A DNA stretch of 64,000 nt from Acinetobacter phage ABPH49. Shown one piece after another: positions 2,887 to 24,658 of this stretch. Made by a program: the position numbers and the translations under genes. The notes below the pieces were generated by a model that worked only from the letters and a program-made list of their open reading frames with translations, made no database searches and had not been told where the DNA came from. Position 1 is the first letter of the stretch; each line of letters opens with the position of its first letter. The DNA is taken from sequence record MH533020.1; one strand, given 5' to 3'.

Positions 2887-3522
2887 TTACTCATTGATTT
2901 CCTCAATCAGTTGGTTCAGTAAGTCTCTGAGTTTTATGATGTTTTTAACACCCATGATGGAAACCTCCTGATTTTTATTATCATCTCGCCTCAGGCTGAT
3001 GGTGCTGGCATTCCCGTTCGAGGTCGCCGTTACAATGGCATCATCGATCTTTCCGCATACCCTCATCGCAGGCCAAGCTACCGTAACCTCCTTTTCGAAG
3101 AAGTCTCGTACCAGCCTAACCACCACCGGTCCGTACATCTCCGCAACCTTGATGATGCGTTCCACACGGTGATATGCTACATCACGCTCACCAATAAACC
3201 GTGTAGTCAAGCATCGAGCTACCTGCACCAAGTGGTTATCGTTATCGGCGCGGAAGCTCCAGTAGCCCTCAGGGTAGGATGACGGCATCATCCGGGTAAG
3301 CAGGCGCTCCAACTGCTCGTCCACGATCTCAACATCTGGATGGATCATCATAGCCGAGAAGTGAAAAGACATCATGTTCCAGTCTACAGCTCCCGGCCCG
3401 CCGGGGAGGGCATCTGAATACATCAGGTAGCCGGACTCGCGAGCTTGACGAAGGTCCATTGTGGACATAAGCTCGTACTCTTTGCGTGGCACAACCACGG
3501 CCACTGATTGCGGCATACTCAT
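2887..3522 (-). CDS. hypothetical protein (~211 aa)
   Basis: ORF; start MSMPQS with GGGGTGG RBS. Confidence 0.6.
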   Translation of the reverse strand: MSMPQSVAVVVPRKEYELMSTMDLRQARESGYLMYSDALPGGPGAVDWNMMSFHFSAMMIHPDVEIVDEQLERLLTRMMPSSYPEGYWSFRADNDNHLVQVARCLTTRFIGERDVAYHRVERIIKVAEMYGPVVVRLVRDFFEKEVTVAWPAMRVCGKIDDAIVTATSNGNASTISLRRDDNKNQEVSIMGVKNIIKLRDLLNQLIEEINE

Positions 3523-7501: not shown

Positions 7502-7535
7502 ATTTTGTCCTCATGTCTGCTCATTTCTTTCCACC

Positions 7536-7564
7536 ACTATACCCAACCTAAAGAGGTCCGTCAA
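7536..7564 (-). promoter_or_regulatory. sigma70-like promoter TTGACG-N17-TATAGT
   Basis: read on the minus strand; about 32 nt upstream of the ATG at 7501. Confidence 0.6.
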
Positions 7565-8323
7565 CTGTTATCTTTCCTTGCCAAAATATCCTGCCCTTTG
7601 GAGGCGGACCGGAGGGAGGCCTCTGGGTCTTGGTGTTTCGGGGGAAATTACACTATTTGGATAGTGGTGCTTGACGGAACCTCTGGGCAGAACGGGGGTG
7701 GGGCGGATCTTTGCCAAATATCTGGGCAAAAATCAAAAAGGGTACCAGTTCCTCGCCGTTCTCAAGTTACAGACATTATAACATCGGCGTGCCAGAATAC
7801 AAGCTTTTTCTTTGCCTTTTTGTTGCAGGCATTCACCAACATTTGGGGTCAGATACAGCACTTTTTGCCAAGAAACCCGGGTTTACCTGTGCTTCACCCA
7901 ATTTAACATAAAACACGTTATACGCACCAACAAGGGACCGGCGGAGCGGGCCTGTTGCAATTGAGTCTCATTACCAACAAGGCAGGCCAGCTAAGGCGCG
8001 GCCAGTGATCAGCCACCTCCATTTGAGAACGCTTCTCATTCAACTTTTGCAATCTGAATCGCAATAATAATTATTCTCATTTGCATTTCGATCCGCATTC
8101 CGGGCACCAACTAAATTTAAAATAAAAATATTTGACAAGTAGCGAATACTGTGTTTTGCTAGGCAGCTTTGCCCTGCTGTTGGTCATCTTGTGAGCAAAT
8201 ACAGCCGCTATCCTGTGGAACCAGACCTCCGGGGCCTGTTGGTCTGCCTCTTCAGTCATCCCCTGATGCATTTCTATGCTAAGAAAACAAGATATTTATT
8301 CACTTAATTTGATAACAAAAAGC

Positions 8324-8351
8324 TTGACATACTGTAATTTGTCTCTATTAA
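8324..8351 (+). promoter_or_regulatory. sigma70-like promoter TTGACA-N16-TATTAA inside a non-coding gap
   Basis: plus-strand motif; no ORF downstream, only a structured region. Confidence 0.4.
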
Positions 8352-8357
8352 AGACAA

Positions 8358-8583
8358 AGGAAAATAGAGACAAGCGCCACCGCCGAAGGCGATGATCGCG
8401 GGGGAAGCAACACAGCCTAGCGCGTGATAGCGCTGGGTGTGGGGGTTACTCTATTTTCCTTTGTCGCTCGCTACGCTCGCGCCACCCTGATCGCGGGGGG
8501 AAAACTGCGACATCTGGTAAAGGTCAACAGCCGAAAAGCTGTGATCGTCTAAAACAGCCTGTGCGCTGTTTTAAGGCGTTTTC
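8358..8583 (+). ncRNA. candidate structured small RNA (about 220 nt), hypothetical
   Basis: promoter at 8324-8351; 17-bp arms 8353-8369 / 8449-8465 give a long-range inverted repeat; local hairpins; a repeated GATCGCGGGGG motif; terminator-like hairpin with T-run at 8553-8583; no coding potential. Confidence 0.25.
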
Positions 8584-8858
8584 ATGCTAAGGTGATAAAT
8601 GGTATGGCTTACAGCCCGAAAGCCTCGCAGTGGTCCGCCTGTGAAGCCGTTTAGATGATAATGGTTCTCAACAAGTTGGTGGTAGGATTTTTAGGGTGAT
8701 TGGTGGGTTTTGGGGGTTGTATTGATCATTGGTTGGTGATATTCTGTTAGATCGGTGTTGGTTGTGGGTGATACCATTCCGCCAGCGGCTAAGGCCGGTT
8801 TCCAACTGGTGGCAATGCCTCGAGGCTCGCCGCTGTTCGCCCTGGGTAATCTTGTGAC

Positions 8859-8888
8859 GAAAACAAGAAACCCGGCGCTGTGGCCGGG
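8859..8888 (-). terminator. rho-independent terminator (minus strand)
   Basis: hairpin CCCGGC-GCTGTG-GCCGGG followed by a U-tract on the minus strand (plus strand shows cgaaaacaagaaa). Confidence 0.5.
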
Positions 8889-8967
8889 CTTGTGGTGGGT
8901 GTTACTGTGGGTTACTGCTGGGTGTGAAACAACCATTTAGCCGCTTCATTGCGGGCCGCGACCTCTT

Positions 8968-22416: not shown

Positions 22417-22444
22417 TTGACTGCTGCAACACAGGGCCTATAAT
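22417..22444 (+). promoter_or_regulatory. sigma70 promoter TTGACT-N16-TATAAT (plus strand)
   Basis: perfect -10; drives the small plus-strand gene at 22476. Confidence 0.6.
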
Positions 22445-22475
22445 GGAGGTACAAACAACGCGGAGAATTGAAACA

Positions 22476-22685
22476 ATGTTGAACCTTGACCAGTTGAAAG
22501 CAGCAATAAATAACGGGGAGCTTGAAACGGCTTACAAGGATTGCCGCCGGTACGGGGTGATAACCTCCAAAGAGGATCGCCAGTGGTTTGGCGACATTAT
22601 CACCACGGTTTGGATAAGTTATCTGGGTAGGCCCTTTAAATTCTCCTTGCGGTTAGGTGTGGTAACGGCGGCAACTCTTTATTAA
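22476..22685 (+). CDS. hypothetical protein (69 aa), the only plus-strand gene inside the left arm
   Basis: promoter upstream, GGAG RBS, terminator hairpin downstream. Confidence 0.5.
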   Translation: MLNLDQLKAAINNGELETAYKDCRRYGVITSKEDRQWFGDIITTVWISYLGRPFKFSLRLGVVTAATLY

Positions 22686-22697
22686 ATTGTGTTGACA

Positions 22698-22726
22698 ACC
22701 CAGCGCAAGCTGGGTTATTCTGTTGT
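22698..22726 (+). terminator. rho-independent terminator ACCCAGC-GCAA-GCTGGGT plus T-rich tail
   Basis: 7-bp stem, GCAA loop, TATTCTGTTGT tail. Confidence 0.5.
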
Positions 22727-23027
22727 CAGCAGGAAACGCCACCCCACGGCGAAAAGGCGGGGCTAACGCAGCCGGGCACGGCGCGGAAGGTTAATCGCCG
22801 GTAGCTCGTCCAAAATTTCTTTTGTAAAGATTGAGAAAAAGCTTGATCGTGGGTGTGAGTGTGCTATTCTTATCACATGGCACCGGATGACGGGGAAGAC
22901 AAACACCACCCCTGCCTGTCATTCTGCAAACGAGAATGATTATCATTCAACATCCTAAATGAGAACCATTCTCATCCCGACCGGGAGAGATCTAGACCGA
23001 AAAACTGATTTACAAAAACAGGATACC

Positions 23028-23240
23028 CTAGAAAAATTTTTCGCCCTCCCCTCTTCTGATATAATACGATCGGAAATTTAAAAAATCGATCGAGATCCTA
23101 AAAATTTTTCGCCCTGCCCTTCTGTAGATTACGAAACCGAAAATGAAAAACCGATCGAGTACCAGAAAATTTTTTCGCCCTCCCCTGCCCGGGGTATTTC
23201 GATCTCGATTTTGAAAAACCGATCGAGAACTCAAGTTTTT
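23028..23240. repeat. three-plus tandem direct repeats of ~67 bp
   Basis: each unit carries TTTTTCGCCCT(C/G)CCC and AAAAACCGATCGAG; the units start near 23028, 23097 and 23162, in a 1.1 kb non-coding region. Confidence 0.6.
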
Positions 23241-23471
23241 TTTAATCCCACGAGGTTGGTAGGAGCGGGCCGATGGAGACCCTTCCGGTGGGTCAAGGTG
23301 TTGGGATACGTGGCGAAGTTATCCACACTTGGAGGTAAGTGGGTGGTAAGCTGTAGGTGGATGGAGGCCCTGAGTGGGTGATTACCGGCAACCGAGTGGC
23401 CGCCGGGATCTCAATTTGAATCTCGATTTGGATTTGATTTTGATTCAGGTTTTATAATATCCTGAAAAATA

Positions 23472-24251
23472 TCAAATATCTCCAAATATCTTGTCGAGAT
23501 TGTACTGGTGGGACGGGTAAATCATCTGGAAAAGATCTCCCTCTTCTTTCGTAGGCTTCGTCCAGTCAACAAATATCTTCTTCACCTCTGCGATAGGGAT
23601 CGTTAAATATCCGCTATCACCGGGCAGCTGCATCCCGACCTTACCCTCTGTAAGGTTCAACACACATCCATTGCGGTAAACGTAGAAGCCGTGGCCGCAC
23701 CACACGGCACGAATACCCTGCACTGGGTCCATGATCTGATACTCACCACGCTTCAAGTCAGGGTACATGGTGCAACGCCTCAGGCCGAGCGACGTAATTA
23801 CCTCAACAAACAACGGGGCGACTTTATGTGCGGCTATGTGGGAATCAACAGTCATGGCGTATGGGAGGTTTCTAGTAAGTTCTTCCCTCATGTGGGTCAC
23901 CATAATCTTCAGCTGTTCCAGAGACAGCTCGTCAAGGTCTGGTTCCTCATGTAAGCCGCCTGACGCCTCTAGGGCACATACCACGTCATGGCGGAAGTCA
24001 TCCATCTTCTCGTAGACTTTGTCGTGGTACTCCATGAAGTCACTGAAGTCGGGGGCCGAAAGGCTGTTAAGCTCCTTCACCAATGGGTGCACGTCATCAA
24101 GATCATCAGCATTATCGAGATTGTTGGCAATCGTGGCAATCTCCGACATCAGGTCATCCGCACTCGGAGAGGCTGGAGTCTTGCAATTGTAATTGGCATA
24201 GTATTCGGTAACACCCAATACGTGATCCATAGTGATATGGTTTAGTGGCAC
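23472..24251 (-). CDS. hypothetical protein (~259 aa; GTG start)
   Basis: GGAGG RBS 5 nt before an in-frame GTG (MPLNHITMDH); the upstream part of the track ORF is low-complexity. Confidence 0.55.
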   Translation of the reverse strand: MPLNHITMDHVLGVTEYYANYNCKTPASPSADDLMSEIATIANNLDNADDLDDVHPLVKELNSLSAPDFSDFMEYHDKVYEKMDDFRHDVVCALEASGGLHEEPDLDELSLEQLKIMVTHMREELTRNLPYAMTVDSHIAAHKVAPLFVEVITSLGLRRCTMYPDLKRGEYQIMDPVQGIRAVWCGHGFYVYRNGCVLNLTEGKVGMQLPGDSGYLTIPIAEVKKIFVDWTKPTKEEGDLFQMIYPSHQYNLDKIFGDI

Positions 24252-24355
24252 AAAACCTCCTGTACGCCATTCTAAAGACGTTGATTGTTTACTGGTGTGG
24301 TTGGATGGGTTGGGGGTTGAAAGTTGAATAGCGGCCCGCAGGGGCCGCACAGAAG

Positions 24356-24658
24356 CTACAGCAGGTACGCCACCAACCAGCACCGGGTCTTCATGAACTC
24401 AAGGGTCCAATCAACCGCTTCGTTGAACTCCGCGACGTGCTCGGCGCTGGCGCTGATCCGAAGGATATTGAAGGTATTATCGTCAACATCCAGAGTCACG
24501 TGACTGTTGAAGTCCTGACTCTCAAATTCGGCAACCACCAAATCTTCCATCTCAGCGTTGTCCGACCAAACGTTTTCAGGGTCGGTGCTCTCGAATGCCA
24601 GCCGGGCGGTAGAGATTATCGACTTGATCCCGAGATCTTTTCTTTCGTGATGTTTCAT
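24356..24658 (-). CDS. acidic hypothetical protein (100 aa)
   Basis: GGGGAGAAC RBS. Confidence 0.6.
   Translation of the reverse strand: MKHHERKDLGIKSIISTARLAFESTDPENVWSDNAEMEDLVVAEFESQDFNSHVTLDVDDNTFNILRISASAEHVAEFNEAVDWTLEFMKTRCWLVAYLL

Follow-up and report, generated by a model that had tools for sequence, protein, structure and literature searches.

Why does a phage keep three tandem repeats of ~67 bp in a stretch of DNA where no gene is predicted? The array in question lies in Acinetobacter phage ABPH49, in a 64,000-nucleotide stretch of sequence record MH533020.1 (here called the window), within a gap of 786 bp (22686-23471) that is free of open reading frames (ORFs). An earlier reading made from the letters alone, the sequence-only reading, had put the non-coding region at 1.1 kb, a length (1.09 kb) which is reached only when a small plus-strand ORF is counted in, and had proposed a phage replication origin or, alternatively, a binding array for a regulator such as the adjacent TraR/DksA-like protein. 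At the locus, the window shares 97% identity with Serratia phage vB_SmaM-Kashira and 82% with ChuuTotoro; both belong to the Vequintavirinae and have genomes of ~144 kb. The source of the window is a Vequintavirinae-like myovirus. We tentatively propose that the three units bind protein and are the central array of a non-coding control region that is conserved and acts in cis; this region may be the Vequintavirinae counterpart of Repeat Region 3 of phage T5.

The three units occupy 23030-23232 (23030-23097, 23098-23163, and 23164-23232), and in each of them a variable spacer separates a left block GAAAAATTTTTCGCCCTSCCC from a right block GAAAAACCGATCGAGWAC. Tandem Repeats Finder (TRF) reports 23030-23186 with a period of 66, 2.3 copies, and a score of 182, while a repeat search finds both blocks in three copies, starting at 23030, 23098, and 23164 (left) and at 23060, 23125, and 23193 (right). 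TTTTTCGCCCTSCCC and AAACCGATCGAG occur three times each in the window, always at the array, and three occurrences were reached in 0 of 100 shuffles. The ~67-bp tandem repeats described earlier are thus confirmed by all three approaches, with unit starts at 23030, 23098, and 23164, a unit length of 66-69 bp, and a block-to-block spacing of 65-68 bp.

An array of ~3 units with a period of 66-69 stands at the same place in Kashira, ChuuTotoro, Mydovirus, Seunavirus, Certrevirus, Henunavirus, Vequintavirus, and Justusliebigvirus. Three units persist in relatives, the number stays at ~3 across genera, and the absence from close relatives that the sequence-only reading had named as evidence against its proposal was not seen. 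Block identity exceeds spacer identity both with ChuuTotoro (96% vs. 76%) and with Seunaviruses (71-74% vs. 49%). As the blocks diverge less than the spacers and the copy number is steady, the blocks are likely selected binding sites rather than the product of recent slippage. The DksA/TraR-like neighbor is not supported as the protein bound there, since the array also occurs in phages with different neighbor genes; members of this family bind RNA polymerase rather than DNA.

The conservation extends beyond the array. At the DNA level, 358 phage records share the conserved block at 22731-22975, and a comparison of the gaps of at least 15 phages revealed a gap length of 0.6-1.2 kb and the same modules in at least six genera, all on the strand corresponding to the plus strand of the window. 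The common order is the slot of the small ORF, a promoter (P1), an ~85-nt conserved block, TTGTAAAG motifs with a second promoter-like site, a GC-rich segment with GAGACAAnCACC, one to five palindromes, the three units, a variable tract, and GATTT/AAATATC repeats.

Transposon sequencing (Tn-seq) of the relative Bas54 by HIDEN-SEQ lists the TA sites hit per feature and speaks for a role of the locus in cis (bioRxiv 10.1101/2025.11.20.689424, supplementary tables). At the locus, one of three sites was hit in bas54_0100, none of 11 in bas54_0101 (scored "Essential"), and 5 of 15 in bas54_0102 ("Strong fitness defect"), while on the flanks 18 of 21 were hit in bas54_0099, 12 of 14 in bas54_0103, and ~95-100% in bas54_0104-0109; the authors do not discuss this locus (bioRxiv 10.1101/2025.11.20.689424). 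Bas54 is phage MaxBurger (MZ501093), as locus tags and coordinates match and our own TA counts (14, 15, 11, 3, and 21) equal the published ones. In that genome, bas54_0102 covers two promoter-hairpin-box modules, bas54_0101 a stretch of 30% GC plus unit 1, and bas54_0100 units 2 and 3. These three are pseudo-ORFs and not genes, as the open frame changes between the window and Kashira and different genera have unrelated translations. The downstream genes on that strand are dispensable in Bas54, and a polar effect is therefore no explanation for the insertion intolerance.

The closest known counterpart that we found is Repeat Region 3 of T5 (AY587007, 9194-10856), the "injection stop signal" (iss) region, which has been described as an essential cis-acting untranslated region situated at 7.9% of the genome, rich in conserved repeats and palindromes and kept in 25 T5-like phages. 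Both regions are untranslated, measure ~0.8-1.7 kb, probably lie 6-10% of the genome inward of the terminal repeat or end, are placed between outward- and inward-facing gene blocks in the same orientation to the genome end, and are considered or observed to be essential in cis. They have a palindrome family in common (DRC1-4/palE-I of T5: AAATGAGAATCATTATCATTTGCATTTC), followed by direct repeats with an A5T5 element and then a G-rich tract, and several Vequintavirinae genera carry TTGAGATAA and DnaA-box sequences in the same order and orientation as T5.

The likeness holds at the level of single motifs. Copies 1-4 of the annotated direct repeat C and palindromes E-I of T5 (AY587007, 9468-9637) belong to the same family as the palindromic boxes of our locus, for example TTCTTAAATGAGAATCATTATCATTTGCATTTC. 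In T5, these boxes are followed by the DRD array with the A5T5 element, a G-rich tract with two TTGAGATAA motifs, and then CCGCCCTCCC and CCGCCCTG. The succession of boxes, A4T4-containing direct repeats, and TTGAGATA is common to T5, K45, Hena1, and GAP31 in both order and strand, at a background of 0.016 per kb each for the box and for TTGAGATA. [quoted passage not shown] A similarity search with the boxes of the window led directly to Kpn13-P3, a T5-like Klebsiella phage of 114 kb, whose region of boxes, DnaA boxes, and iterons (~9.8-10.6 kb; boxes at ~1530-2060 of the fetched stretch) lies where the long terminal repeat has its inner edge in relatives of T5.

The distance to the genome end was derived from KPP-1, a Mydovirus relative, for which PhageTerm placed a direct terminal repeat (DTR) of 514 bp at 116,316-116,829 (PMC9862379). 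This DTR sits in a gap of the same configuration and maps to 7666-8081 of the window, including a 27-nt match of 100% identity (7901-7927), which would put our locus ~14.6 kb (~10% of the genome) inward of the mapped DTR; in KPP-1 the distance is 8.1 kb. The surrounding ~1.4 kb of the window (7502-8967) has no convincing ORFs and is homologous to the KPP-1 DTR gap and to a gap in Bas54 and Bas58, and hence probably holds the terminal repeat of this phage. It contains further boxes (8021-8044, 8062-8090, and 8656-8670), plus-strand sigma70-like promoters (~8133 and ~8325), a GC-rich hairpin-prone segment (8365-8480), and G-rich tracts (8670-8760 and 8890-8925). Between the DTR region and the locus, bas54_0110 (84643-84996 in MZ501093; 117 aa; 9 of 31 TA sites hit) is the only gene scored as essential in Bas54, and its product, a protein without assigned function, could act in trans as a partner of the cis element.

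Followed inward from the closest end of the genome, the region begins with three sigma70-type promoters, which would fire non-coding plus-strand transcripts, and continues with the cluster of palindromes resembling Fur boxes, the three units, a variable tract that is G-rich here, and an easily melted AT-rich tract. Host factors, possibly Fur, may bind the boxes while a phage or host protein binds the blocks of the units, and the resulting nucleoprotein complex would sit where the first ~6-10% of the genome gives way to the remainder. On the analogy with T5, we tentatively assign to it a role in staged genome entry or in switching from the early segment, which would enter first, to the remaining genome. 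Staged entry is ranked slightly above a replication origin because the likeness to T5 comprises several motifs in the same order and position, whereas the case for an origin consists of a generic architecture without support from skew or an initiator; the two roles are not mutually exclusive. A circumstantial parallel is that Demerecviridae and Vequintaviruses are both hypersensitive to daunorubicin, which blocks the infection by a T5-like phage after first-step transfer (PMC13250531).

The palindromes that the sequence-only reading had seen at 22932-22973 are indeed present and resemble Fur boxes (22921-22975): CGAGAATGATTATCA (22931-22945) and TGAGAACCATTCTCA (22960-22974) lie 29 bp apart and have two and three mismatches, respectively, to the 7-1-7 Fur core TGATAATNATTATCA. 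Box 1 falls between the minus-strand hexamers TTGAAT (22950-22945) and CAGAAT (22926-22921), spaced by 18 nt, and the authors of the FBKp34 record annotate a minus-strand promoter at its counterpart. Every relative carries one to five boxes in its gap (at most 0.3 expected), with the consensus TGAGAATGATTATCA and usually at 29 bp from each other. Across the window, ten sites lie within three mismatches of TGATAATNATTATCA (2969, 8065, 8656, 11205, 18724, 21201, 22931, 22960, 35256, and 45991), compared with 2.2 expected, and ten were reached in 0 of 100 shuffles. Eight of these fall within the initial 23 kb, where small genes form an end-proximal block, and their distribution suggests a recurrent operator of the early region.

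The boxes are possibly Fur sites by sequence. The phage boxes form a 7-1-7 inverted repeat, TGAGAATnATT(A/C)TCA, agreeing with 12-14 of 14 positions of TGATAATnATTATCA; perfect cores occur in relatives (TGATAATCATTATCA in phiWec187 and GATAATCATTCTCATTATC in Kpn13-P3), one box lies within a promoter spacer, and the boxes are clustered as has been reported for Fur sites (PMC2189734). The T5 sequence TGAGAATCATTATCA has a single mismatch to the 7-1-7 Fur core, and the published analysis of the T5 iss region makes no mention of Fur. The phage boxes differ from Fur sites in their 29-bp distance, as Fur sites form overlapping 6-bp arrays, and there is no iron-related gene nearby. A search of the box cluster against annotated E. 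coli promoters was uninformative, the database being too large for motifs so short. The cluster of phiWec187 matches unannotated regions of E. coli plasmids of 13-40 kb over 29-35 nt at 86-90% identity, with E values of 1-5 that may reflect chance. A bolder version of the proposal, which we regard as improbable, is that the box cluster which T5-like and rV5-like phages have in common (TGAGAATnATTMTCA, 29-bp spacing) is a host Fur array that together with the direct repeats makes up the T5 "injection stop signal" determinant, and that Vequintavirinae and their relatives deliver the genome in two stages.

Several observations weigh against staged entry and against the parts of it that involve Fur and T5. 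No site within three mismatches of the 19-mer Fur consensus occurs in the window, and position 4 of the half-site is a symmetric G in the phage consensus, as against T in the ideal Fur box. The iss of T5 is assigned by position only and not to particular motifs, and T5 has nine 15-nt DRD repeats, whereas there are three composite units of 66-69 bp here that have no T5 homologue. Among the ten largest ORFs in 9-22.4 kb of the window there was no A1-, A2-, or dmp-like protein, and matches were only to PHROGs without function; two-step DNA transfer has never been reported for Vequintavirinae. The place of the DTR in this phage is deduced through short similarities to KPP-1. The intolerance of insertions in Bas54 may reflect a bound protein that shields the DNA from the transposon, as in the effects of H-NS on Tn-seq, rather than essentiality.

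Other differences from T5 concern the surroundings of the shared motifs. In T5, DnaA boxes are paired within large inverted repeats and there is a site-specific nick, while the window has one perfect DnaA box and other genera have none or unrelated ones. This phage has a pseudoknotted RNA and sigma70-type promoters, unlike T5. The T5 region lies inside a terminal repeat of 10 kb, whereas here a short DTR (514 bp in KPP-1) is set apart from the locus, and T5 is a siphovirus, while this phage is a myovirus.

A replication origin is the strongest rival, and one that we consider possible though somewhat less probable than staged entry. The units would then be iterons for an initiator, inward plus-strand transcription would activate or prime replication, and a T7-like primase-helicase would be loaded at the AT-rich tract (23400-23492). 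This tract, as described earlier, has a GC content of 0.33 and consists of short repeats, GATTT and CAAATATC, arranged as four to five copies of GATTT(G/C) followed by three to four of (C)AAATATC, and it shares sequence with the 3' end of the minus-strand ORF 23472-24383. Of all 60-bp duplexes in the window, the least stable lies here (23432-23491; dG -65.5 vs. a mean of -85.1, standard deviation 5.0), and at a size of 100 bp, segments of the locus come second (23407) and sixth (23008) for low duplex stability. The motifs of the tract recur in GAP31, CR9, CB7, Hena1, SSE121, ChuuTotoro, and Bas54. Direct repeats with conserved blocks in at least three units next to the least stable DNA, and promoters pointing into the array, are what an origin would be expected to have, and the insertion intolerance in cis of Bas54 is compatible with an origin without being specific to it.

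The replication genes leave room for such an origin, as the phage encodes a T7-like replisome (a 732-aa DnaB_C-type helicase, a family A polymerase, and a Pif1-like helicase), and no initiator was recognized among the large ORFs tested. The origins of T7 and T4 are transcription-activated, and the systems compared here were lambda ori, the T7 primary origin, T4 oriF and oriG, and ColE1 RNA II. The layout fits the transcription-activated origins of lambda and ColE1, and RNA II is likewise a long non-coding transcript with a structured 5' domain (PMC5043065). Typical iterons, however, are 17-22 bp long and helically phased, whereas the blocks here are 65-68 bp apart and not in helical phase, and unlike in iteron-type origins there is no adjacent or enclosing initiator gene: the neighbors are the DksA/TraR-like gene, the swappable small ORF, and the gene of a 303-aa protein.

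The nucleotide composition gives no support to an origin either. The minimum of the cumulative GC skew is at ~31.4 kb, the strand switch, although skew is a criterion of little weight in phages. Inside the co-oriented block, values of -0.015 on the left and -0.068 on the right of the locus make a small difference that is opposite in sign to the expectation. The G-rich, C-poor tract at 23240-23400, confirmed with a GC skew of +0.44 to +0.46, is variable: ChuuTotoro has a different sequence in its place, and the tract shows no G-richness in GAP31, SSE121, and CR9. It could favor R-loops, and R-loop priming was rejected on account of this lineage specificity. Its perfect DnaA box (23319-23327), the only one of the window, is found in the window and Kashira only, and a DnaA-dependent origin was rejected as this single box is not conserved across genera.

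The origin suggested by the sequence-only reading is partly supported: the conserved cis-acting element, the meltable tract, and the insertion intolerance in Bas54 agree with it, whereas no skew signal, adjoining initiator gene, or conserved DnaA box was found. Repeat Region 3 of T5 is itself oriC-like, with DnaA boxes and iterons, which means that the readings of entry and origin may converge; the T5 origins, however, have been reported as multiple internal sites not tied to Repeat Region 3. Another candidate origin site was an insertion-free intergenic gap of ~2.5 kb in Bas54 (bas54_0134/0135), highlighted in the HIDEN-SEQ paper (bioRxiv 10.1101/2025.11.20.689424). Its counterpart in Bas58 matches the same short element of the window as the DTR of KPP-1, and it was rejected as a rival site because it corresponds to the DTR region (~7.5-9.0 kb of the window) and not to the strand switch of the window, which has no gap.

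The locus might instead serve transcription, with the P1 RNA, P2 transcripts, and a possibly Fur-controlled antisense promoter as its output and the units as regulator sites or promoter-proximal elements for the early program, a possibility that we regard as unlikely. The promoters themselves are conserved. P1 (22692-22721, plus strand) reads TTGACA-18-TATTCT and scores 10 of 12, with a GC hairpin (22697-22716) in its spacer, and the TTGACA-hairpin-TATACT arrangement recurs in the gaps of 13 of 15 relatives. Further along the plus strand, at 22822-22870, a TTGTAAAG motif accompanies the candidate promoter P2 (TTGATC at 22843-22848, a 16-nt spacer, and TATTCT at 22865-22870). P2 scores 8 of 12 in the window, under the threshold of the scan, and is taken as a promoter from the better matches at its position in relatives, such as TTGATC or TTGCAA with TATTAT or TATATT. 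The position of box 1 in the spacer of the conserved minus-strand TTGAAT-18-CAGAAT is the classical layout of a repressed promoter.

Downstream of P1, the ~85 nt at 22732-22816 (plus strand) are predicted to fold into a hairpin, an H-type pseudoknot, and a second hairpin. In the alignment-based structure, stem S1 pairs 22737-22740 with 22748-22751, the pseudoknot pairs 22743-22746 with 22759-22762, and stem S3 pairs 22767-22774 with 22779-22785 around a GGCA loop; the 3' tail GAAGGTnnATCGCCGGTAG (also written GAAGGUnnAUCGCCGGUAG) is invariant. In an alignment of 27 distinct sequences, with slid partners and 500 shuffles as controls, 85% of the cells were paired, compared with 27-48% when the partners were slid, and the covariation score was 0.270, compared with at most 0.092 in the slid versions and reached in 0 of 500 shuffles. 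Both sides have changed in six of the seven pairs of S3, and the pseudoknot occurs as CCCC/GGGG, CCAA/TTGG, CCAG/CTGG, and CCAT/ATGG. A covariance model scores 101 bits at 22732-22816, its only copy in the window, and also matches Mydovirus, Seunavirus, Henunavirus, Stephanstirmvirinae, and an Aeromonas Plateaulakevirus, with two copies in one IMG/VR locus. No Rfam family matches the P1 RNA (best 15 bits vs. gathering thresholds of 44-80), which makes it a candidate for a new structured RNA family.

This RNA is clearly structured and widely conserved, but no copy was found by the covariance model in Vequintavirus loci, where the locus is nevertheless insertion-intolerant, and the RNA is hence not the essential core. 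The wholly insertion-free part in Bas54 consists of units and not of the promoter and RNA modules, and the downstream minus-strand genes are non-essential there, leaving no polar effect. As RNA, the units fold no better than shuffled sequences on either strand (z-scores of -0.87 to +1.27), on which ground structured-RNA repeats were rejected; nor are they general promoters, as their motifs are unique to the locus and not sigma70-like. No Vequintavirus transcriptome was found in the literature.

The GC-rich segment that follows P2 (22880-22919, plus strand) contains AAGACAAACACC at 22896-22907, which is kept in all lineages. Its consensus fold found no support in RNAalifold (-0.04 kcal/mol), and a covariation of the P2 hairpin seen by eye was rejected for lack of RNAalifold support.

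Far less probable is a terminator or insulator between convergent transcription, in which the C-rich minus-strand RNA of 23400-23240 would load Rho after the stop codon at 23472, while the C-rich, G-poor plus-strand RNA over the units would end the P1 and P2 transcripts. A strong strand asymmetry of the skew to either side of 23240, the convergence of minus-strand genes with plus-strand promoters at the locus, and the presence of only one intrinsic-terminator-like site in the region would all suit such a role. It leaves the thrice-repeated blocks, the boxes, the insertion intolerance, and the motifs shared with T5 unexplained, and the G-rich tract is not conserved across genera.

We give very little credence to a small repetitive protein encoded by the repeats (relatives annotate GAP31_043A and bas54_0100/0101): stop-free stretches of 45-77 codons do cover the array in all phages compared, but it is open in several frames on both strands, which points to an effect of composition; the frame that is open in the window is not the one open in Kashira, although their DNA is 97% identical; the unit lengths (65, 66, and 68) are not consistently multiples of three; and, apart from repeat-derived snippets, translations from different genera are unrelated. 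Equally implausible are a pac site or physical terminus, which the GATC-containing repeats of the pac of phage P1 would recall and which is ruled out as the DTR maps elsewhere (8.1 kb away in KPP-1; ~7.7-8.1 kb in the window) and the locus is separate from it, and decayed tRNA genes, of which ARAGORN finds none in the window or in an annotated relative, even at 70% thresholds.

The annotated relative is Klebsiella phage K45PH128C2 (OY978796.1; fetched stretch 3099-3252), whose record places tRNA-Ile and tRNA-Met over the conserved block; these features have no ARAGORN support and are probably misplaced annotations. A local cluster of GATC, as for SeqA-type methylation, was rejected as a feature of the locus because GATC is over-represented across the genome (467 observed vs. 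250 expected). Another motif of the sequence-only reading, GAGAGATCT, did not recur where it had been placed (11349 and 12696); it occurs at 22985 and 31300.

The left neighbor is the DksA/TraR-like gene, whose earlier assignment holds (PF01258, E=1e-13), and on the other side the gap is followed by the minus-strand ORF 23472-24383, encoding a 303-aa protein without assigned function. The small plus-strand ORF (22443-22685, 80 aa; with its promoter 22417-22685) was described earlier as a gene with its own promoter and terminator. The promoter stands (TTGACT-16-TATAAT at 22417-22444, score 11/12), while the hairpin taken for the terminator (22697-22716) is the one in the P1 spacer. This ORF is swapped between the window and Kashira (3076-3342 of the Kashira piece) despite flanks that are 97-99% identical. 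Among relatives, the slot is filled by at least five unrelated PHROG/Pfam families (phrog_23636, 19316, 33408, 4653/DUF7170, and 37537 across genera), which argues against a dedicated initiator. By these comparisons, it is a fixed position with exchangeable cargo, a hotspot of cassette exchange.

Vequintavirinae and Stephanstirmvirinae (relatives of rV5, PVP-SE1, phi92, and phAPEC8) are widely used candidate therapeutic phages, and the locus is a defined cis element of ~0.8 kb that is relevant to the origin and genome entry of these phages. It also holds a covarying pseudoknot that belongs to a candidate new RNA family and, in phages that are strictly virulent, a group of Fur-like operators. 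If the reading with Fur and two-stage delivery were true, entry or the early program would depend on a host factor and perhaps on iron status. The motif-level kinship with the iss region of T5 links two unrelated phage families and allows a comparative approach to a T5 question of ~50 years' standing, namely what stops first-step transfer.

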